A stretch of 64,000 nt of DNA from a virus. Below, piece by piece: positions 44,495-59,561 of the stretch. The position numbers were made by a program, and so were the translations under genes. Where the stretch lies: the IMG/VR virus record IMGVR_UViG_3300042938_002732, positions 31,363 through 95,362 of that record; one strand, given 5' to 3'. The first letter of the stretch is position 1. Each line of letters begins with the position of its first letter. Under the pieces are notes generated by a model, which saw only the letters and a program-made list of their open reading frames with translations, ran no database searches and was not told where the DNA came from.

Positions 44495-46051
44495 TTATTC
44501 AATAGGTTGGAGTGTGTGTGGATCGACCTTGCCCCAGGATTTGGGGGGCAGGACTTCGAGATCGGCGGCTGTCTTCTCCTCGTTGATGGGGAATCCGATG
44601 AGCGTGGAGATTTCGCGATAGGTTGTTTCGAACTTATCGGCATCCGAGACGCGGCTGGGTTTCGGGATGAGGCCGAGTAAGACTTTCTTCACCGAGGGCC
44701 AGAGGGCTTGTTCGCGTGTGCCGTCTTCTCCGGTGAGGCAGAATGACCAATTCTTGTAGCCGTAGGTCTCTTTCTGTGAGTCATCTCGGATTGGGAAGGC
44801 CGTGGGGTTGTGGATGTAGCCCCACAGATTCTCGTTCACGGGGGTGCTTTGCATGGACTCGGCCTTGAAGGGGAGGCCGAAGACGGCAATGAGGTGGTCG
44901 ATGGGGGTGGTGAGCTTGTCGAGCGTGGCATCCTTGAGCGCGGTTTCGAGCTTGTCGCGCACGATGACCCAGCGTTTGCCTTGGAGCATACTGGCCTTGG
45001 CCTTCTGTTTGTCTTCGGGGCTGGCAGGGGCGTCGTCTTGGTTGCGCTCCTTCTTTTCCGATAGGAGGTAGCGAAGGGTGAATTTGCTATTTTCAAAGAT
45101 GAGCACCTTCTTGGCTCCCTCTTCCGGCGCGTCGGAGAAGCGTTGGTTCCATTTCTCCCACTCGCGTTGGTAGTGAGTGCCTTGGATCGTTACGGAGTCG
45201 CGGGCTATGACCGGGAGTTGTTCGCCCTCGCAGAGTCGGGTGTATTCCGCGTCGATGTGCAGTTGGCGGCGCGCCATGAAGCAAGCGGTGTTCATGCAGC
45301 GTCCGCAGTCTTCTTTTGCCGAGAAGTCGAAGAGGGACTTCTGCTTGGAGGAGTCGCAGGCGCAGCCGGGGCCGCAACCTTCCACGAAGGTGCAGGGATC
45401 ATTGAGCCACTCGCTGTTGGCGAGCGAGGCGAGGTATGGCGAGAGGCGATCTTCCAAGTCCTTGCGCGATGTCGCGAGGCGGATGCGGTTGGGGAAGTTC
45501 TCGTCTGCGTGTGGCAGGTTCGGCAGCGAGGCGAGGAGTTCCATCATCTCCGCGCTGAAGTGGTGCAACTCTCCCTTTGGCCCCCATGCTTTCAGGAGAC
45601 TCTCTGGCAGCGTGGCGAGTTGGTAGCGGCGGGATGTCCACTTTTCCGATTTGCCAAGGGCTGCGGCGAGGTGCTTGATGCCCTTCTCTCCGCGATCGAT
45701 GAGACGCTTGAGCAGGAGTGCCTCGGCGTAGGGATCGGGGTCGAGGCGCTGCAGGTTCTCGGTGAGGATCGTCTCTTCGAAGGTGTCGTCATCGTATTCC
45801 CGCACGATGGCTTTGAGCGCCTTCATTTCCGCTGCCATAGCGGCGGTGTAGCGGCGTGCGCCAGCGGCGATTTCGTAGTGCCCTTTTTTCTCGGGGTGTG
45901 GCCGGACGAGGATCGGGGTTTTCTGTTCCGCCTTGAGGGACTTCGCGAGTTCCTTGATGGAGGGTTCCGTCGGCTTGGGTTGCCGTGTATTCTGCGTGCT
46001 GATGTGGAGTTTTGCCAGCGGGATGAGCTGGACTTGTTCTGTTGTTGTCAT
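44495..46051 (-). CDS. parB: ParB/RepB/Spo0J family protein (PRTRC ParB-like architecture)
   Basis: PILVRP, EIAAGARRYTAA, ENLQR, HTH, then Cys cluster CGPGCAC...CGRCMNTACF. Confidence 0.85.
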   Translation of the reverse strand: MTTTEQVQLIPLAKLHISTQNTRQPKPTEPSIKELAKSLKAEQKTPILVRPHPEKKGHYEIAAGARRYTAAMAAEMKALKAIVREYDDDTFEETILTENLQRLDPDPYAEALLLKRLIDRGEKGIKHLAAALGKSEKWTSRRYQLATLPESLLKAWGPKGELHHFSAEMMELLASLPNLPHADENFPNRIRLATSRKDLEDRLSPYLASLANSEWLNDPCTFVEGCGPGCACDSSKQKSLFDFSAKEDCGRCMNTACFMARRQLHIDAEYTRLCEGEQLPVIARDSVTIQGTHYQREWEKWNQRFSDAPEEGAKKVLIFENSKFTLRYLLSEKKERNQDDAPASPEDKQKAKASMLQGKRWVIVRDKLETALKDATLDKLTTPIDHLIAVFGLPFKAESMQSTPVNENLWGYIHNPTAFPIRDDSQKETYGYKNWSFCLTGEDGTREQALWPSVKKVLLGLIPKPSRVSDADKFETTYREISTLIGFPINEEKTAADLEVLPPKSWGKVDPHTLQPIE

Positions 46052-51949: not shown

Positions 51950-52372
51950 CTAAATTCTGAACCAACCCCACAATGCTCCGTCGTTTTTGTGCGCTCCGAA
52001 ATAGAAACCCTCTGGAGAGTGCTCGTCCAGAATGTCTTTGAGAGATTCCAGCAGCGAGTCAGCGGCCTCCGAGTGCCACCACTTCGAGGAGCGGCCTTCG
52101 TCTTGGACATAGGCAGGGATCGGGCCGAAGGATGAGGCCATAAACCCCTCGTAGTGAGCCGGAGCGAACTCCGATACGGCGTCAAGAAAGCAGGGGATGA
52201 GGTCTTGTGGGTGTGTCGTGCCGCCTATGAGCGGGCCGGTGTATGGTGGTATTTCTCTGATCTCTTTGAAGTCGATTTTTTGTCCTGTGCCTTCGCACTC
52301 GGGGCAATTGTCTCTGGCGGTTCCAAGCCTGCAATGGCAGGGTTCTCCGGTTTTAGGCTGGTATGGGTTCAT
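51950..52372 (-). CDS. Conserved phage hypothetical protein with N-terminal Zn-finger-like motif
   Basis: CHC...CPECEGTG; PEGFYFGAHKNDGALWGW. Confidence 0.7.
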   Translation of the reverse strand: MNPYQPKTGEPCHCRLGTARDNCPECEGTGQKIDFKEIREIPPYTGPLIGGTTHPQDLIPCFLDAVSEFAPAHYEGFMASSFGPIPAYVQDEGRSSKWWHSEAADSLLESLKDILDEHSPEGFYFGAHKNDGALWGWFRI

Positions 52373-53426
52373 GGTGTCGTAGTTGGATGATGTGTAGGTT
52401 TTTGCGGAATCCTGTTATGCGGATGGTGTAGGAATCGGCATCGCGCTGGATCGTGTCGCCTCCATTTTCGAGCGCGTCGATGAGGTAGCGTGGCTCGACG
52501 CGGAATGGCGTGGGGCGTCCAGTGGTTATGGCCTTGTCGCGGATGAGGGTGTTCTTGGTTTGCAGGGTTATCGAGTCCCCTTCGGGAATAATCGCTATAT
52601 TTTCGGGTTTTTCTGTTTTTATGAGTTTCCGCAAGGCGTTGAGTGTGGTGTCGCTGGCGATTTGCAGGCGATTTTCGGACGGCTCGGGGATGATGCCGAC
52701 CCAATTCGGGTATTTTGTGGCCAAGGCGATGGATGTGATGCGTGTTATGACATCCTCCTTGGTTGAGACGAGGTGGATATGGCTTGCATTAAAGGAAATG
52801 CTCGCCCCCTCTTCCATAAGGGCGGCAATCGGCTGGGGAATGCTGATTCCTGCTGGCTCAGGGCAGTGGGAGGAGACTTGCTCCATGTGCAGCCTTTGGC
52901 CGTCGCATCCTACGAGGGAGTTGCCTTGCCAGAACACGCCTTCTATAGCTGGACGCAGGGCTTTTTTCTCTGCCACGCATTTGAAGCAACGCTTTACGGC
53001 GCTCGCGTCGAGTTCGCAGCTATCGTGATCTGCCTGGAAGGGGATCGGGTCTGGAAATTCGAGGTCTTGCGACTCCCATGGCACATCGGAGAGGGTGTTG
53101 CCGATCTGGATTTGAATGGACTCGGCGGTGATCGTCACATTGCTGTCTTTTTCCGCGCTCACGGCGCAGTTCAGCAGGGTGGCTGCGGGGATGAGGAATG
53201 TCTCTGGCTCTATCGGTTTGGCAAGTGCCTTGGCGAGCTGGCCGATCGGTTGTGTGCGGGGAATGCCGATCTCGATCTCGGTTTCCAAGTTGGTCGCGCG
53301 CAGGCGCGTTCCCGACCAGTCCGAGGTGGCGTGAATACACGCCAGCCCGGGGTTTACTGGCTTGGATGGGATGATTTTCGCGAGCTTGCGGCAAGCGGCG
53401 AGGAGGATGGGCTGTGGGATTTGCAT
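52353..53426 (-). CDS. DNA polymerase III beta sliding clamp-like protein
   Basis: About 357 aa; LRATNLE, GCDGQRL, YPNWVGIIP and PRYLIDAL match DnaN-family motifs. Confidence 0.75.
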   Translation of the reverse strand: MQIPQPILLAACRKLAKIIPSKPVNPGLACIHATSDWSGTRLRATNLETEIEIGIPRTQPIGQLAKALAKPIEPETFLIPAATLLNCAVSAEKDSNVTITAESIQIQIGNTLSDVPWESQDLEFPDPIPFQADHDSCELDASAVKRCFKCVAEKKALRPAIEGVFWQGNSLVGCDGQRLHMEQVSSHCPEPAGISIPQPIAALMEEGASISFNASHIHLVSTKEDVITRITSIALATKYPNWVGIIPEPSENRLQIASDTTLNALRKLIKTEKPENIAIIPEGDSITLQTKNTLIRDKAITTGRPTPFRVEPRYLIDALENGGDTIQRDADSYTIRITGFRKNLHIIQLRHHEPIPA

Positions 53427-53427
53427 A

Positions 53428-53634
53428 TTATCGAGGAAGTTTGGGGCCGACTCCGACAATCAACTTTTGCTCAAAGTCGAAGGCAGCGGCGGAGGGGTAG
53501 GTGGTGGGTATGTCGAAGTCTTCAAACATCAGTTCAAGCTCGGAACGAGCTTTTGCGTGTTTGTCGCTGAGGCCGATGCAATACTCGATGAGTTGGAGGA
53601 CTTCTTGGTTTGTCCAGTTGTTGCGTTTGATCAT
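53428..53634 (-). CDS. Hypothetical protein
   Basis: Coupled ORF. Confidence 0.55.
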   Translation of the reverse strand: MIKRNNWTNQEVLQLIEYCIGLSDKHAKARSELELMFEDFDIPTTYPSAAAFDFEQKLIVGVGPKLPR

Positions 53635-54287: not shown

Positions 54288-54512
54288 TCATTTTAGGTCG
54301 ATTGAGCAAAGTCTTACGGCAGGCAGTGTTTCACCTTCTTCCTTTGTCACCGGCAACAGGTCTTCCTTGCTGCATGAGGTGCCCCACCCCGAGTGCCACC
54401 GCACCCTTGGGTTCAGCGGGTCGTGTTTGCCTCGGTAGTGCACCACCACCCCGTGCGTGATCGCTTCGGTGGGGTGGATGGCTTTTACCCTGTCGCCGGG
54501 GGTTGTGATCAT
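54288..54512 (-). CDS. Small SH3-like hypothetical protein
   Basis: PGDRV...GVVV...VRW...EDL pattern. Confidence 0.55.
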   Translation of the reverse strand: MITTPGDRVKAIHPTEAITHGVVVHYRGKHDPLNPRVRWHSGWGTSCSKEDLLPVTKEEGETLPAVRLCSIDLK

Positions 54513-54697
54513 GTCTTCTTGGCCTTGCGGCGGGCGCGCTTCGGGGTCTCTGGTGTGGCGGGGAGTTCCAGAGTGCGTGGTGGGAGGGTGGATTTGAATG
54601 GCTCTGTGGCGAGTATGACTTCCACAGCGAGGTTGGCGGCACAGATTGCCGCCATGCGGAGCAGGCGCTCCTGGTCTTGTTGGTTTATGTATATCAT
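54509..54697 (-). CDS. Small basic hypothetical protein
   Basis: ATGA-coupled to the JAB gene. Confidence 0.55.
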   Translation of the reverse strand: MIYINQQDQERLLRMAAICAANLAVEVILATEPFKSTLPPRTLELPATPETPKRARRKAKKT

Positions 54698-55773
54698 GTT
54701 AGTTGCATTAAGATTTCATCAAATCCCATTCCTGCATCATTGCAGAGGCCAAGGGTCTCTTCGGCGATGGCTGTTTCCTCTGGGGACAAGTTAGCGCCCA
54801 TGTGTGAGAGGTTTATGATGCCGGTGAGAGTGGCGATTGATATGCGCTCGCGCAGCATGAGCGCATCTATGTAGCACACGGCCATGTCCAGCTCGTGGTC
54901 TCCCATTCCGTAGTCATCTCGCTCGGGCATGGCGAGCAGGTGGGCGGGGGTGGTCTCTTTGGCGAAAGCGGTGCGGGGCACCCATTCTTTTTCGTTTTCC
55001 AAGCCGTTGTAGCCTCGGTAGTCACGAGTGGGCGTGGTAGCTACTGGCTTGATGGCCTCTTTGATGAGGTTTTCCGCCCAGCCTGGGGGGAATTGGAGTC
55101 GATCCTTGGGCACGGGCGTGCAGAGTTGGTATTTCACGATGTCCTCGCGGATACTTTCCGGCAGGGGCATAGGGAGTGGCGGTGCGTGGAACCAGTCGGA
55201 GAGCACGGCGGTGTAGTAGGCATGGCTGGCCTTGGAGGCCACGGAGCCATCTTCAGCAAGTGTGCCTGGGATCGTGAGAGAGACGCGGGCGTGGATGGTG
55301 TGGGCGGGGCTGTTGATGTTGCCGAGGGTGATGTGGATGCCCATCTCGGTCTCATCGGCGGAGTCTGTGCCGCTTTGGAAGGCTCCGGTGGAGCAGTGGT
55401 GGTGCGCTGTGCCGAACTTGATCCAGTTTCCGCCTGCCATCTGCTCGTTGAGTTGGCGCTCGTAGTCGGGGTTGTCGGAGAGTTCCTTGGCGGTCATGCC
55501 TGTGCCGTATTTCTGCGGGAAGGCGTGGGCTTTGAACTCGCCTGTGTCGGTATTAAGCATCAGTCGCACTTGGGTTTCCGACTTGGTTTCCTCGTAGCTC
55601 CATTGGAAGAAGGACACGATCTGCTGCCAGACGGCATCGGGAATCTTGGCCCCTGTCCATCGCATAGACGGCGAGGCTTCGGTGATCGTGACTTTGGACG
55701 GCACATGGCCGATAAAGCCATTGCCGAGATTGCGGAGTTCGTAGAGGGACTTGCTGTGGGATATGAGTTTCAT
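54694..55773 (-). CDS. JAB/MPN-family metalloprotease (deubiquitinase-like)
   Basis: SETQVRL catalytic Glu and HHHCSTGAFQSGTD, matching HxH-x7-SxxD. Confidence 0.85.
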   Translation of the reverse strand: MKLISHSKSLYELRNLGNGFIGHVPSKVTITEASPSMRWTGAKIPDAVWQQIVSFFQWSYEETKSETQVRLMLNTDTGEFKAHAFPQKYGTGMTAKELSDNPDYERQLNEQMAGGNWIKFGTAHHHCSTGAFQSGTDSADETEMGIHITLGNINSPAHTIHARVSLTIPGTLAEDGSVASKASHAYYTAVLSDWFHAPPLPMPLPESIREDIVKYQLCTPVPKDRLQFPPGWAENLIKEAIKPVATTPTRDYRGYNGLENEKEWVPRTAFAKETTPAHLLAMPERDDYGMGDHELDMAVCYIDALMLRERISIATLTGIINLSHMGANLSPEETAIAEETLGLCNDAGMGFDEILMQLT

Positions 55774-56015
55774 TTGTGGTGAGTGAGGTTGGGTCTGCGG
55801 TGTGGGCTTGGTGTGCGTGGCGGGGGTCTGCGGTATTGTGTGGGCGGTGTGGGTGGCGGGGTTGGCGCGCGGTCTTCGCTATCGGGCGGCGGTGGGCTGC
55901 TGCGCGATTGCCACGCAGCAACAAGCCAGATCACCCCTATGGCGAGCAGGAGCGGGGCGGCTCCTATGAAGAACGAGGCGATGAAGAAGAGGCCGAAGAC
56001 GGCGAAGTTTTTCAT
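55770..56015 (-). CDS. Small membrane protein with Pro-rich tail
   Basis: Hydrophobic N-terminal 35 aa; ATGA-coupled on both sides. Confidence 0.65.
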   Translation of the reverse strand: MKNFAVFGLFFIASFFIGAAPLLLAIGVIWLVAAWQSRSSPPPPDSEDRAPTPPPTPPTQYRRPPPRTPSPHRRPNLTHHK

Positions 56016-56581
56016 TCCTCGTCTTCGTCTGCTCCGTCCCGCTGGCTGATCAGCCTTTCGGCTTCTTCCATGAGGTCGTCGAGGTCGCTTTCGATGCAGA
56101 AATCCGTATCGTCTCCGCTTGTGTCGAACTCATAGTCGGAGCCATCCTCATCTTCAGTGTATTCAGAGATTTCGTTGGCAACATAGTCGCGCACCTCATC
56201 CATTCCCTGTTCCCAGATGGAGAGCGGGACTTCTATGCGGCCTTGCTTTACCCAGTCTCGGGTGTATCTGTTGTATCCTGTCTCTTTGGCATCCACTTCC
56301 ACAAACTCGCCCCGGCGGATTTCGTCTGCTTCGGGGTTGTGGGGGGGGGTCCAAGCTTTTTCCGGAGCGGGTATCGGCTTGAGGGGCTTGAGGGTCGCGA
56401 GCCAGGCTTCGATCTGCTCAAAGTTGGTCGCGCCATCCGGCACGGGGCAGTTGAACTTGATGCGCAGGAGCGCGCGGGTGTAGGGAGACATGGGCGCAAG
56501 CAGGACGAGATTTTTCAAGTCATGCGAGGGCCACTTGTAGGGTAGCGCCTCGGGGCGCAGGGTGTCGGTATTTGTTTCCAT
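56012..56581 (-). CDS. Acidic protein, paralog 2 (inside the Ubl cassette)
   Basis: WPSHDLKNLVLLAPMSPYTRALLRIKFNCPVPDGATNFEQIEAWLATLKP identical to paralog 1; D/E-rich C-terminus. Confidence 0.75.
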   Translation of the reverse strand: METNTDTLRPEALPYKWPSHDLKNLVLLAPMSPYTRALLRIKFNCPVPDGATNFEQIEAWLATLKPLKPIPAPEKAWTPPHNPEADEIRRGEFVEVDAKETGYNRYTRDWVKQGRIEVPLSIWEQGMDEVRDYVANEISEYTEDEDGSDYEFDTSGDDTDFCIESDLDDLMEEAERLISQRDGADEDEE

Positions 56582-56607
56582 AAATTATTGAAAGTCTTAT
56601 TGTAAGA

Positions 56608-57162
56608 CTAATCTTCCGTTTCGTCGTTGGTTCCGTCGCGTTCGGCAACCATGTCTTCGGCTTGCTCCATGAGGTCGTCGAGGTCGTCTTCGATGTCGAA
56701 GTCGTTCAAGATTGTTTCTGAGTAGTCGTAGTCGTTATAGCTATCGTCGGCATCTTGATCTCCGATTACATCTCTCACATAATCCCTGACGGCTCTCTTG
56801 CCTTGCTCGAAGACGGAAAGGGGCACTCGGATTTCGTCCCGCTTTTCGTAGGAACGATTGTAGACGCAGTATCCTGTCTCTACGCCAGTCACTAAAATGA
56901 ATTCCCCGAGGTCAACCTCGTTGCGGCGTCTCGGAGGCGCTGGCGGCAGCGGCGGTGGCGTGGGCGGCTTGAGGGTCGCGAGCCAGGCTTCGATCTGCTC
57001 AAAGTTGGTCGCGCCATCCGGCACGGGGCAGTTGAACTTGATGCGCAGGAGCGCGCGGGTGTAGGGAGACATGGGCGCAAGCAAGACGAGATTTTTCAAG
57101 TCATGCGAGGGCCAGTGGTAGGGCGGTGCCTCGGGGCGAGGGGCTTCGATGTTTGTTTCCAT
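56608..57162 (-). CDS. Acidic protein, paralog 1 (inside the Ubl cassette)
   Basis: As paralog 2; starts METNI directly after the ThiF stop. Confidence 0.75.
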   Translation of the reverse strand: METNIEAPRPEAPPYHWPSHDLKNLVLLAPMSPYTRALLRIKFNCPVPDGATNFEQIEAWLATLKPPTPPPLPPAPPRRRNEVDLGEFILVTGVETGYCVYNRSYEKRDEIRVPLSVFEQGKRAVRDYVRDVIGDQDADDSYNDYDYSETILNDFDIEDDLDDLMEQAEDMVAERDGTNDETED

Positions 57163-57166
57163 AGGG

Positions 57167-57871
57167 TTAGGCAGCGTCGGCATAGCGGGTGGTCTCGGTG
57201 GAGGTGGCGGTGTTGGAGAAACCCAGCGGCCAGAACGGGCGGGTTATTTGCGGGTCGAGCTTGGGTTTTTCGATGAAGACGAAGTTCCACAGCAGGAGCA
57301 AGTGGGCGGATGCCATGTGGTTGGCGATAGGGGTTTGTGGCACTTCGCGCAGACGGGCCTCGGAGTTGCAGCCGCTGGCATGGACGGGCGAGCCGCTGTC
57401 GTCGGTGAGCATCTCGGGCCAGCGCACGCGCGGGTCGCGGGGCGTGCCTTTGTCGGAGGGGGAATACCACCAAGACTCTGCGCCGATTGTCGAGTTCGCG
57501 GCAGAGAGCACGGTGACTCTCGCAGCGGCATCCGCCGCATCGAGTGCGTGCAGACGGGCCAAGTGGTTATCGGCCATTATGATGATGCTGTCGCCATCCT
57601 TGACGCGGAAGGCGCTGTCGATGTAGAAGGTGGATGTCTTTAATCTCCCATACCAGGGGAACTGAGCTGCCAGCGCGGTCGCCTTGTAGGCGTCGATGTG
57701 TTCGCGGTCGAAGTTCTGCCTGCGCAGGTTGTGCTCTTCGAGTCGGTCGCCATCGTGCAGGATGACGCGGTGGCTGCGGATATCGTCGTCCTGACAATAC
57801 CGGAGCGTGCGGAGGAATGGCGGCAGGAAGTAGCTGGCTACGCCGCCGCAGCCGATGATGTGGGTCGTCAT
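57167..57871 (-). CDS. ThiF/E1-like adenylyltransferase
   Basis: IIGCGGVAS, HDGDRLEEHNLRRQNF, YKA, ADNHLAR, candidate catalytic SGC and QTPIAN. Confidence 0.9.
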   Translation of the reverse strand: MTTHIIGCGGVASYFLPPFLRTLRYCQDDDIRSHRVILHDGDRLEEHNLRRQNFDREHIDAYKATALAAQFPWYGRLKTSTFYIDSAFRVKDGDSIIIMADNHLARLHALDAADAAARVTVLSAANSTIGAESWWYSPSDKGTPRDPRVRWPEMLTDDSGSPVHASGCNSEARLREVPQTPIANHMASAHLLLLWNFVFIEKPKLDPQITRPFWPLGFSNTATSTETTRYADAA

Positions 57872-58110
57872 AGGTTTTGGATGGCTGAGAGGATTTCTTG
57901 GTTTTCGTTGTGCTTCTTTTTCATCTGCTCTTTGTGGTAGTCCCTCTTGTGGAGGTAGTCGGCAGTATCCATAAACTTCCGTAGTGCGCGCACGCTGGCC
58001 TTGTCTGTGAGGTGCGCTCGCAGGGTTTCGTGGAGAAATTTCTGGTCTGCTGAGTCCTCATCCAAGTCAGGAGTCTGCAGTTGGCATTTCAGCTTGTCGT
58101 AGAGGTTCAT
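57868..58110 (-). CDS. Small hypothetical protein between E2 and E1
   Basis: ATGA-coupled on both sides. Confidence 0.65.
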   Translation of the reverse strand: MNLYDKLKCQLQTPDLDEDSADQKFLHETLRAHLTDKASVRALRKFMDTADYLHKRDYHKEQMKKKHNENQEILSAIQNL

Positions 58111-58838
58111 ATAGCGATAGATTTGAAGAATTTGTCAAAGATGTCGTTGGATACCGAACGGGCGCTGTCGCGGTAGCGGCGCTCCTCCCAGCCTTGGTAG
58201 TCGGGGGTGAGTTCCTCGCCAGGAGTCCAGAGGAGCAGCGGGATGGGGTTCGTGACTGGGTGTAGGTCGTTGTTGGAATTGGCGGATTGAATCCAATCCA
58301 CAGCGGCTTCGAAGGCTTCCAGTATCGGCAGTGTCTGGACGCGGGTGTGCTCGTCGCGCCAGGCATTGCCCATGCAGATCCGGCCATCGTCGTAGGTATT
58401 TGAGAAAGGCGGGCGGTAGATGTTTTCGCCCACGGCGTGCCAGCACATATATGGCTCCCGCTGCATGGTGAGTCGGCCATCCACATCGAGGTCGAATCTG
58501 GCGAAGAACCACATCTCGTGCCCTGGCGGCGGGGTAAAGTCGAGGCTCTGGTGGATCGACATGCTGTTGTCGTAGAAGACGGCATGCACCTTGGCCGTGC
58601 CGTCGGGAAGGGTGATGGGGGCGAAGTGTGTTTTGAGGCGCACGCTCTCCAGCTTGCGGCCAAGCACAAGCTGCTGGGATGAGATTTTGGCTGTGTATCC
58701 CAGCGAGGGGAAATCGCGGATCACCACCGGCTCGCTCCGCGCGATGTTGCGGAGCATCTCGTTGGCGTTGGCGATGGGCGTGAGGTCGGCGCGGCGGAGT
58801 TGGCCGTCTGTGGCGTCGATGAGGTAGAATGAGTTCAT
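58107..58838 (-). CDS. Prokaryotic E2-like protein (family D / PRTRC protein B-like)
   Basis: YRPPFSNTYDDGRICMG active-site motif and SANSNNDL. Confidence 0.8.
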   Translation of the reverse strand: MNSFYLIDATDGQLRRADLTPIANANEMLRNIARSEPVVIRDFPSLGYTAKISSQQLVLGRKLESVRLKTHFAPITLPDGTAKVHAVFYDNSMSIHQSLDFTPPPGHEMWFFARFDLDVDGRLTMQREPYMCWHAVGENIYRPPFSNTYDDGRICMGNAWRDEHTRVQTLPILEAFEAAVDWIQSANSNNDLHPVTNPIPLLLWTPGEELTPDYQGWEERRYRDSARSVSNDIFDKFFKSIAI

Positions 58839-58871
58839 AGTCTTATGATAAGGATGAAGTAAGGTGGGACG

Positions 58872-58899
58872 AGTCGCCGCAGTGGGGGCTGCGGCGACT
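58872..58899. other. Strong hairpin between Ubl and E2 genes
   Basis: AGTCGCCGCAG-TGGGGG-CTGCGGCGACT; no U-tract. Confidence 0.7.
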
Positions 58900-58906
58900 T
58901 GTCGGA

Positions 58907-59131
58907 TCAGGCGGCCTTCGAGTGCGCCAGCTTCTGGATGAGGAGGGTGTCTCCTGCATACAGCGTGGTGTTCGATTCCGCCTTGGCGCCGGAGATGAGA
59001 CCTTCGACATTGCTGGTGTCGAAGTTCAGGACTGCGGCGTAGTTAGCGTTGGACAGGATTTGTCCAACCGTCGTGCCTTCCAGCACATCCACTGCGAGGG
59101 TGTTGAGACCCGATTTGAGATTTACGAGCAT
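58907..59131 (-). CDS. Ubiquitin-like (beta-grasp) protein, 74 aa
   Basis: VDVLEGTTVGQIL...LISG...TTLYAGDTLLIQ ThiS/MoaD/Ub pattern; AGAAAGGA RBS; first gene of the E2-E1-JAB cluster. Confidence 0.75.
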   Translation of the reverse strand: MLVNLKSGLNTLAVDVLEGTTVGQILSNANYAAVLNFDTSNVEGLISGAKAESNTTLYAGDTLLIQKLAHSKAA

Positions 59132-59262: not shown

Positions 59263-59388
59263 TTGCAGATGGTGGCCTTGCCGAGTAACCTCGGTCCGAC
59301 GCTTGCGTCGCTTCCTGTTTTCCGGCGATCAACCCTTCTTGGGAGCGAACCACATCCCGTCCAAAGATTGGACGCGACTTATCTGCAA
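59263..59388 (-). ncRNA. Candidate structured RNA or leader upstream of Ubl
   Basis: 8-bp closing stem TTGCAGAT/ATCTGCAA enclosing several perfect hairpins. Confidence 0.45.
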
Positions 59389-59405
59389 AGTCTTATCGTA
59401 AGACG

Positions 59406-59561
59406 CTAATAGTCAACGCACCGGAATTTTCCGGTGAGTTGCTGCACGATCTCTTGAATCTCGCGGCGGTGATCTTCTTTTTTCACCTTGTGCGGGCGCG
59501 ATGGCGGGAGTGTCGGCTTACGAATGCTTTGAAGGCATTCGAGTTGTGTAGGAGTTTTCAT
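59406..59561 (-). CDS. Small basic hypothetical protein
   Basis: ATG abuts one palindrome, stop abuts the next. Confidence 0.55.
   Translation of the reverse strand: MKTPTQLECLQSIRKPTLPPSRPHKVKKEDHRREIQEIVQQLTGKFRCVDY

Follow-up and report, generated by a model that had tools for sequence, protein, structure and literature searches.

Organization of the cassette

The cassette lies in a phage genome, an IMG/VR record of 95,362 bp that carries direct terminal repeats and has a CheckV completeness of 100. The window, that is the whole 64,000-nt stretch of this record that was analyzed, also encodes terminase and tail proteins. The original prediction had described a co-oriented and mostly translationally coupled cluster of eight open reading frames, and all eight were present on the minus strand between 54694 and 59131. 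Read in the direction of the genes, they begin with a 74 amino acid ubiquitin-like (Ubl) protein (58907..59131), followed by a GC-rich hairpin on the same strand immediately 3' of the Ubl stop codon (58868..58903; -26 kcal/mol in RNAfold), which falls within the 68-nt gap that separates Ubl from the 243 amino acid E2-like protein (58107..58838). Downstream are the small orf80 (57868..58110), a minimal ThiF/MoeB-type adenylating enzyme (E1) of 234 amino acids (57167..57871), acidic proteins A (acidA; 56608..57183) and B (acidB; 56012..56581), the 81 amino acid membrane peptide TM81 (55770..56015) and a 359 amino acid JAB/JAMM-type metalloprotease (54694..55773). Overlaps of 4 bp join E2 to orf80, orf80 to E1, acidB to TM81 and TM81 to JAB. 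The probable start of acidA is Met8 (57162), which would leave a 4-nt gap after E1, and 26 nt lie between acidA and acidB. The gene string runs beyond the end originally predicted, with further 4-bp overlaps between JAB and the small minus-strand orf62 (54509..54697) and between orf62 and orf74. The cassette sits in a replication and early gene block, as the predicted placement in the early arm had it, and its neighbors in the replication/recombination block of the window are clamp, ParB and SNF2 genes. None of the single cassette sequences reached a curated family cut-off among the PRTRC/NCBIfam and Pfam models.

The accessory proteins were conserved to differing degrees. An ORF of about 80-125 amino acids occupied the orf80 position in nearly every related locus, its sequences falling into unrelated clusters. 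The two acidic proteins are paralogs, as had been noticed, and 27 related loci carry homologs in the interval from E1 to JAB; acidA had no family match in the model searches. The acidB counterparts in four relatives (L002-L005) were 50-69% identical, L005 having a single copy. The hydrophobic N terminus of TM81, predicted to be a membrane peptide, and its Pro-rich basic tail can be read directly from the sequence; the peptide is conserved in L002-L005, and orf62 is kept at the same position in all four. Nothing in the cassette was recognized as an E3 or a target-recognition component.

The Ubl protein and its C-terminus

The AF2 model of the 74 amino acid protein had a pLDDT of 93.4, and its best Foldseek matches in the PDB were ubiquitin, NEDD8 and SUMO, with TM scores of 0.67-0.75. 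This confirms the beta-grasp assignment of the original prediction, the ubiquitin fold of the model being a confident one. Ubl is also the most conserved part of the cassette, being 83-95% identical in relatives whose E2 proteins share 51-84% identity. Over 62 loci K72 was invariant and the terminus was K-A, with K-G in a few and K-Q, K-N or K-E in three. Beyond the K-A or K-G terminus, these loci encode 0-30 additional residues, often 1-30, and five of them encode a tandem di-Ubl in which each unit ends in ...KA. The variable extensions and the di-Ubl forms past a fixed Lys-Ala imply that Ubl is processed at its C-terminus. A conserved end followed by variable tails appears to be the pattern of a modifier that is matured at a fixed C-terminus, and the mature C-terminus would be A73. 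The Ubl of this phage ends in ...AHSKAA and so lacks the C-terminal Gly (Gly-Gly) that serves as a criterion for ubiquitin-like modifiers. An Ala-ended E1 substrate has nevertheless been proven, namely the E. cloacae CD-NTase, which ends in ...GRFA and forms an AMP adduct in Cap2 (bioRxiv 10.1101/2022.03.31.486616).

A hairpin of other sequence was found at the same site after Ubl in L003-L005, where a T-run follows it. The post-Ubl hairpin may possibly be a partial terminator, which would set the level of Ubl above that of the enzymes.

The E2-like protein

The E2-like protein contains the catalytic-loop motif PPFSNTYDDGRIC(155)MG. Within the motif FSNTYDDGRICMG, N147 and C155 were invariant in 50 relatives that ranged from 18 to 91% identity, in agreement with the intact Cys motif first reported, and the motif aligned with the NPNLYEDGKIC of a solved E2 (HPN...C loop). 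The protein matched the Pfam family Prok-E2_D (PF14460) with an E value of 3e-4 at 21 bits, the cut-off being 25, and 30 of the 50 relatives matched this family at E<=0.01 (best 1.5e-8). With the AF2 model (pLDDT 90.7), VIA-align gave UBC E2s as the best matches, but these matches were weak (Z 4.8-3.8) and a Foldseek search with the model gave no match.

The E1 protein

In 37 E1 sequences the residues G7xG9G10, D40, D42, N48-L-x-R51-Q52, K63, D101-N102...R106 and C168 were invariant, which bears out the predicted Rossmann and NLxRQ motifs and shows the candidate catalytic Cys to be conserved. A profile of these sequences matched SAE2 (1.5e-13), UBA3, UBA5, ThiF, MccB, BubCD, Cap2 and MoeB, the SUMO and NEDD8 E1 matches having E values of about 1e-13. 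All adenylation residues are kept, and the protein belongs to the E1/ThiF-MoeB adenylating superfamily. C168 lies 67 residues past D101, a spacing that we take to be like that of ThiF and MoeB, and judged from spacing only it may be the counterpart of their crossover-loop Cys; no alignment of the E1 profile to a solved E1 extended to the C168 region.

E1 is minimal and MoeB/ThiF-sized, its profile matches ThiF, MoeB, Uba4, TcdA and MccB with E values of 1e-8 to 1e-12, and its relatives in cultured phages are annotated as thiamine biosynthesis protein ThiF. These features would suit a sulfur-carrier or other acyl-adenylate pathway in the style of ThiS/MoaD, TcdA or MccB, in which E1 and Ubl act with no protein conjugation. 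Nucleotides, tRNA or a peptide are examples of substrates for such a pathway. We consider this explanation improbable, since an E2 with the invariant Asn...Cys and a JAB are present in every complete locus, the best E1 matches are the protein-conjugating SAE2 and UBA3, the di-Ubl precursors are polyubiquitin-like, and model searches found no rhodanese, cysteine desulfurase or sulfur-insertion enzyme in the cassette.

The JAB protein

The zinc-site motif of JAB, H124-x-H126-x7-S134-xx-D137, was invariant in 49 relatives together with E66, and the motif seen at the outset is intact in all of them. The core of the protein lies at about residues 40-240, and the C-terminal part is variable and helical. 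The best named match was PRTRC_A, with an E value of 1.8e-3 over the HxH...SxxD region alone; Prok-JAB was weakly matched by 24 of the 49 members (best 8e-4), and a profile search by sequence found no solved JAB.

The module might instead mainly erase or hijack host Ubl marks, with JAB stripping Bil-type conjugates off virions, an alternative raised in the original prediction, and with E1, E2 and Ubl serving as decoys or competitors. Host Bil is reported to tag phage tail proteins (10.1101/2023.09.04.556158). We regard this explanation as very improbable. It would make a highly conserved Ubl of the phage's own, with a fixed processed terminus, superfluous; the catalytic residues of E1 and E2 do not vary even between clades that share about 30% identity; and JAB is not detectably close to the BilC or Cap3 models. 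The constant presence of a separate Ubl, E1 and E2 likewise argues against a role of JAB only as an eraser.

Distribution and gene order

The JAB of the cassette is encoded by at least 95 uncultured phage contigs in IMG/VR. The order Ubl-E2-E1-JAB was found in 62 of the 62 examined loci whose contigs extend sufficiently upstream; 18 further loci are cut by contig ends and stand outside this count. This synteny among related phages, a survey of which the original prediction had proposed, places the cassette far beyond chance. Flanking genes are not shared among the loci, indicating that the four genes move together. The related loci always lie within replication/recombination gene blocks, which in other, unrelated phages contain DNA pol A plus primase, Rad52-like or AAA_24 genes, and distant loci and other phage clades have no ParB close to the cassette. 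The ESM Atlas clusters nearest to JAB are 88-97% viral, and among 185,579 species genomes the cassette occurred on 23 MAG contigs only and in no isolate. BLAST matches in GenBank were marginal and partial and came from phage records; plasmids gave none. The lineage of the cassette is almost purely viral and keeps all of its catalytic residues.

These data bear on the explanation that the genes are anti-phage or superinfection-exclusion cargo of a temperate phage, which would tag the structural proteins of competitors in a Bil-like manner for the lysogen. The known bacterial Ubl/E1/E2/JAB sets, Bil and CBASS Cap2/Cap3, are defensive and often carried on mobile elements, according to two reports (PMC10557695; 10.1101/2023.09.04.556158). 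The E1 weakly matches the CBASS E1-E2 models, but PADLOC gave no match for Ubl, E2 or JAB, the E2 is of family D and not of the Bil type, and neither a CEHH protein nor a CD-NTase was found. Defense cargo is usually located in variable islands, whereas this cassette runs in the same direction as replication genes, is translationally coupled with them and has the same place in the replication blocks of unrelated phages. Together with the viral JAB clusters and the few MAG contigs, this makes a function as defense cargo unlikely.

Proposed function

We think it probable that the cassette is a phage-encoded, self-contained and reversible ubiquitin-like conjugation module that is expressed with the replication and early genes. 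JAB would first trim the residue or residues beyond Lys72-Ala73 of Ubl, and in relatives it would cleave longer tails or di-Ubl precursors as well. The ThiF-type E1 would then use ATP to adenylate the Ala exposed at the C-terminus, probably taking Ubl onto Cys168, and Ubl would next move to Cys155 of E2. E2 would join Ubl to lysines of target proteins, and JAB could take it off again. With the hairpin, the tag would be produced in excess of the enzymes. Its targets could lie among phage replication or recombination proteins or among host proteins, and the co-conserved acidic protein is a further candidate. The most likely reading is reversible protein tagging early in infection. For the purposes suggested in the original prediction, which were takeover, counter-defense or removal of host Ubl marks from virions, the evidence is confined to the position of the cassette in the replication/early block of very different phages and to the constant retention of Ubl, E1 and E2. 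More tentatively, tailed phages of many lineages may carry their own Ubl writer and eraser for covalent, Ala-ended tagging of host or phage proteins early in infection, reprogramming replication or disarming host defenses, and the co-conserved acidic protein could then be an adaptor or a substrate.

To our knowledge, bacterial ubiquitin-like conjugation has so far been shown solely for host defense (Bil, CBASS, Bub). If the cassette conjugates proteins, phages would be turning this chemistry to purposes of their own, and a writer and eraser of this kind would be a viral counterpart of host Bil and CBASS conjugation. The fixed Lys-Ala end also provides a practical handle, as modified lysines would retain a lone Ala (+71 Da) after trypsin digestion, and with the four genes expressed this remnant would let mass spectrometry locate the targets.

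Comparison with known systems

The cassette fits no named family, and the model cut-offs of PRTRC, Bil and CBASS were all unreached. The original prediction had named these three as known systems with such gene sets; PRTRC stands as the nearest named system, but membership fails for all three.

The cassette resembles type II CBASS (Cap2/Cap3) in combining E1 adenylation, an E2 cysteine and reversal by a JAB, and the CBASS substrate of E. cloacae is Ala-ended, as the phage Ubl would be. The phage E1 weakly matches Cap2 models, but Cap2 is an E1-E2 fusion whose substrate is a CD-NTase, whereas the phage E1 and E2 are separate proteins and the putative substrate is a beta-grasp protein. A CBASS type II assignment was rejected on the separate E1 and E2 and because no CD-NTase or effector was found. 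Bub (BubAB/BubCD, operon type 6e) is similar in using multi-Ubl precursors that an operon-encoded peptidase cuts, and the BubCD E1 and the E2-like BubB were among the sequence and structure matches. Bub enzymes have no catalytic cysteines and use an oxyester route and a serine protease (PMC11601596), in contrast to the phage cassette with its two invariant cysteines and JAB-type protease.

Bil (BilABCD) also has Ubl, E2, E1 and a JAB deubiquitinase as four separate proteins. It corresponds to operon type 6d of Iyer, Burroughs & Aravind 2006 (PMC1779556). It differs in being a host-encoded defense with a Gly-ended Ubl, another prokaryotic E2 family and a helical CEHH protein, and membership was rejected because there was no Bil-type Pfam or PADLOC match and the context is a phage replication arm. 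We know of no other bacterial system of such a layout that has been shown to conjugate Ubl onto protein targets.

PRTRC, the ParB-Related, ThiF-Related Cassette (NCBIfam TIGR03734-03742), is found in plasmids, ICEs and some prophages. The single proteins could not be assigned to it: JAB scored 17.8 bits against PRTRC_A (TIGR03735; cut-off 101.8), E2 14.7 bits against PRTRC_B (TIGR03737; 131.45) with the Cys-loop alone aligned, and E1 18.8 bits against PRTRC_ThiF (TIGR03736; 144.75). Among representatives of the E2 family, PRTRC_B was matched by 0 of 50 at E<=0.001 and, weakly, by 6 of 46 at E<=0.01. The ParB at 44495-46051, 8.6 kb from the cassette, was rejected as a PRTRC-type ParB (TIGR03734), scoring 83.7 against a cut-off of 278.6 in its N-terminal half only. 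A search of all 95 kb of the genome with PRTRC_C (TIGR03738) gave nothing at E<=1, while in one control genome it scored above the cut-off. The search of the cassette proteins likewise gave no PRTRC_C match, and no match for the PRTRC D, E and F proteins. The acidic protein and membrane peptide of the phage are in turn without PRTRC counterparts. One canonical PRTRC has been described in Burkholderia gladioli prophage AB2 (PMC13366799). Another is reported from a prophage of Phocaeicola vulgatus; there, protein B is a hotspot of recurrent mutation, which is linked to a diversity-generating retroelement (bioRxiv 10.64898/2026.10.01.756045). Given these 2026 papers, the phage cassette is not a first. 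Common to PRTRC and the phage cassette are a stand-alone small Ubl, an E2-like protein of the Prok-E2_D type, a short ThiF-type E1 and a JAB-type protein, as well as carriage on mobile elements and a ParB in the same genome arm. The lineage appears to be a phage-specific relative of PRTRC, of the Prok-E2_D type.

Organization of the cassette

The carrier record is 95,362 bp long, has direct terminal repeats and is given a CheckV completeness of 100 in IMG/VR. The window is its final 64 kb, with genes for a large terminase, for tail and virion proteins and for a primase on the plus strand. The minus-strand arm, which starts at the genome end and contains the cassette, also carries genes for ParB, an SNF2 helicase and proteins resembling a ligase and a beta clamp. 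All genes of the cassette are on the minus strand, where the ubiquitin-like protein (Ubl; 58907-59131, 74 aa) is followed by an E2-like protein (58107-58838, 243 aa), a small protein, orf80 (57868-58110), the E1 (57167-57871, 234 aa), two acidic paralogs (56608-57183 and 56012-56581), a hydrophobic, proline-rich peptide (55770-56015, 81 aa) and the JAB (54694-55773, 359 aa). The ORFs claimed in the original prediction are therefore present, and the co-oriented string that it described was seen, with overlaps of 4 bp at the majority of junctions and, as the exception, a 68-nt spacer 3' of the Ubl gene.

The overlapping string runs on beyond the JAB (54288-54697) with orf62 and orf74, both of which share 4 bp with the gene before them; orf62 is kept in all four close relatives (L002-L005). 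The same gene string also encodes, some 1.2 kb downstream of the JAB, a sliding-clamp-like protein (52353-53459), which matched the dnaN model at an E value of 6.5e-11, under the cut-off. The ParB (44495-46051, 518 aa) passed a generic ParB model at 116 bits.

Family assignment and predicted folds of the proteins

No single cassette sequence reached a curated family threshold, and none of the eight proteins had a match in PHROGs. The family-level evidence is much stronger than these single-sequence scores. The Ubl, which as a single sequence matched no curated family, gave an AlphaFold2 model with a pLDDT of 93.4 when 16 relatives were used as the alignment. The model has the order beta-beta-alpha-alpha-beta-beta-beta with a floppy tail, and its best Foldseek matches in the PDB were ubiquitin, NEDD8 and SUMO, at a TM score of approximately 0.7.

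The E2-like protein scored 21 bits against Prok-E2_D (cut-off 25) and 14.7 bits against PRTRC_B (cut-off 131). An exhaustive profile search gathered 199 cluster representatives at E<=1e-3, and in 50 representatives, with identities of 18-91%, the sole invariant residues were N147, C155 and L192; 30 of these 50 touched Prok-E2_D and none touched PRTRC_B (E<=0.001). The cysteine loop aligns to NPNLYEDGKIC of a solved E2. The AlphaFold2 model (pLDDT 90.7) consists of a helix, a beta-meander, the cysteine loop and two helices; Foldseek returned nothing for it from the PDB, and VIA-align ranked UBC enzymes at the top with modest Z scores (4.8-3.8), along with FANCL, RWD domains and BubB. The structural comparison favours a UBC fold without proving it.

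As a single sequence the E1 reached 16.7 bits against ThiF (cut-off 28) and 18.8 bits against PRTRC_ThiF (cut-off 145). A profile built from 37 relatives matched the SUMO E1 (1.5e-13) as well as the NEDD8 E1, UBA5, UBA6, Uba4, TcdA, ThiF, MccB, MoeB, BubCD and Cap2. Residues G7, G9, G10, D40, D42, N48, R51, K63, D101, N102, R106 and C168 were invariant across the 37 sequences. The JAB scored 17.8 bits against PRTRC_A (cut-off 102), 24 of 49 relatives touched Prok-JAB weakly, no precomputed Pfam domain was found in 69 clusters of relatives, and JAB profiles retrieved nothing relevant from PDB sequences. Its JAMM motif (E66, H124, H126, S134 and D137) was nevertheless invariant in 49 relative clusters. 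The beta-grasp-like fold first proposed for the 74-aa protein, the Rossmann and NLxRQ motifs of a ThiF/E1 and the intact HxH-x7-SxxD of the JAB are thus borne out by the model and its structural matches, by the invariant adenylation residues with profile matches to canonical E1s, and by the JAMM conservation, respectively.

We consider it likely that the cassette works as a conjugation and deconjugation module that serves the phage early in infection or during its replication. A sulfur-carrier pathway, or another that does not act on proteins, would leave the JAB as well as the invariant cysteine of the E2 unexplained, and we regard it as improbable.

The Ubl terminus and the spacer behind the Ubl gene

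Among the aligned loci, G48 and K72 were the only invariant residues of the Ubl. The position after K72 is alanine in most loci, glycine in a few and glutamine, asparagine or glutamate in three. The Ubls of a marine clade stop exactly at ...SSKA, and those of other clades continue for 1-8 residues past the KA end (A, V, SA, LA, ELACA, TVELALA and others). One single Ubl (L034:4023-4334) has a 30-aa tail after KA, and five loci encode a tandem di-Ubl (L011:3284-3730, L012:2863-3366, L014:2676-3152, L015:3878-4369 and L031:2581-3084) in which both units end in ...KA and are joined by a linker of 2-5 residues. Judged by their sequences, these di-Ubls would be polyubiquitin-like precursors, and the terminus pattern is that expected of a modifier in which cleavage would expose a fixed C-terminus for activation. 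The fixed terminus, together with the variable extensions and the di-Ubls, argues for a maturation role for the JAB, which in the conjugation module would make this cut before activation. The terminal alanine should be no obstacle, since structures of Cap2 show its E1 site occupied by an AMP adduct of the ...GRFA tail of the E. cloacae CD-NTase (bioRxiv 10.1101/2022.03.31.486616).

The Ubl is also the most conserved gene among the close relatives, at 83-95% identity, compared with 72-93% for the E1, 55-77% for the JAB and 51-84% for the E2. If the cassette were purely an eraser of host marks, the conservation of its own Ubl, E1 and E2 would have no explanation, and we think this reading very improbable.

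The 68-nt spacer after the Ubl gene (58839-58906) contains an 11-bp GC-rich hairpin. The Ubl stop is followed by a stable hairpin in the window and in L002; in the other three (L003:7916-7994, L004:4830-4915 and L005:755-846) this position is taken by a different and longer hairpin, which includes the palindrome GTCTTA...TAAGAC and has a T-run behind it. The hairpin may be an attenuator, through which more tag than enzyme would be made. An inverted repeat, GTCTTAcgaTAAGAC, is found upstream of the Ubl leader (59380-59410), and the related CTTATCATAAGAC lies directly before the E2 start codon (58839-58855). In the closest relative (L002:7839-8000), approximately 160 nt of extra open frame run from the hairpin to the E2 start, in frame with E2, and could be an N-terminal extension of E2 or an inserted small ORF.

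Distribution and genomic setting

A pattern scan of IMG/VR identified at least 95 contigs with this JAB, 80 of which were fetched for analysis; locus HMMs were iterated on the fetched loci, and their E values refer to that small set. The E1 was found in 76 of the 80 loci, the E2 in 70 and the Ubl in 62, and the 18 loci lacking a Ubl were all cut by a contig end. Synteny in these related phages was constant, the genes always standing in the order Ubl-E2-E1-JAB on one strand in the loci carrying them. A small ORF sits between E2 and E1 in nearly every related locus, its sequences falling into unrelated clusters. In 27 loci, members of the acidic protein family, for which the ESM Atlas gave no usable match, stand between E1 and JAB; the marine-type clade has none, and its E1 directly adjoins JAB. 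The cassette is real and well conserved.

Outside the cassette, the window shares no gene with the distant loci, and the cassette therefore travels as a unit. It lands in a like kind of place despite its unshared flanks: in L038 it precedes genes for DNA polymerase A and for an AEP primase, in L021 it precedes a gene for a Rad52/Mgm101-like protein, and in L014 an AAA_24 ATPase gene is close by. The ESM Atlas clusters closest to the JAB were 88-97% viral. Carriage as defence cargo would fit the known bacterial systems, but neither the conserved position in replication operons nor the viral restriction fits it, and PADLOC gave no defence-model matches beyond weak Cap2-type ones for the E1; we hold it to be unlikely. 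The conjugation module is the stronger reading against each of these alternatives.

A scan of 185,579 species genomes, made with a JAB alignment smaller than the 49-sequence set, yielded 23 MAG contigs, mostly Verrucomicrobiota, and no isolates, which hints at this phylum as host of at least one clade. The verrucomicrobial ones among the contigs (L087-L109) came from Limisphaerales, subdivision 3 and one Akkermansia MAG, and two cassettes on contigs of 125 and 188 kb could be prophages.

The cassette had no blastn match among GenBank phages, nor did the window E1 and JAB have tblastn matches among GenBank phages and PLSDB plasmids. A marine-clade JAB matched one unannotated faecal phage fragment and nothing else. 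E1s of other clades gave marginal matches (E value 7e-4 to 7e-3, 28-30% identity) to cultured phages, namely the Flavobacterium FpV4 group, Bacteroides DAC15/DAC17, Ralstonia YO105_4 and Salmonella Arash. With the cassette HMMs, a distant ThiF-type E1 was found in FpV4 (63878-64564 of NC_041872.1) and in DAC15 (75859-76869 of NC_055832.1), the latter also with a weak JAB match, and no E2 or Ubl of the lineage was detected in either; the cultured phages were therefore rejected as models. The E1 genes of FpV4 and DAC15 adjoin primase, UDG and exonuclease genes, and the weak JAB match in DAC15 is the gene upstream of E1.

Relation to known systems

Several types of operon with E1, E2, JAB and Ubl were predicted by Iyer et al. 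2006 (PMC1779556), of which Bil, CBASS and Bub have since been tested. Papers of 2026 mention prophages that carry canonical PRTRC, still with no function assigned to it (PMC13366799; bioRxiv 10.64898/2026.10.01.756045). The phage cassette is of moderate to high interest as a defined four-gene system whose mass-spectrometry signature could be used to test for ubiquitin-like marking by phages. PRTRC is the nearest named system, to which the phage set corresponds in its four kinds of protein and probably also in the family of its E2. However, all PRTRC models fail on the phage cassette, PRTRC_C finding nothing, and PRTRC_parB is the second-best match of the 518-aa ParB, over its N-terminal half only and at 83.7 bits against a cut-off of 278.6. 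The ParB is also unlinked to the cassette in other clades, none being found near it in the distant phage clades. These differences make the lineage a sister of PRTRC and not a member; systems of this kind are known but functionally unexplored, and the cassette is a variant specific to phages.
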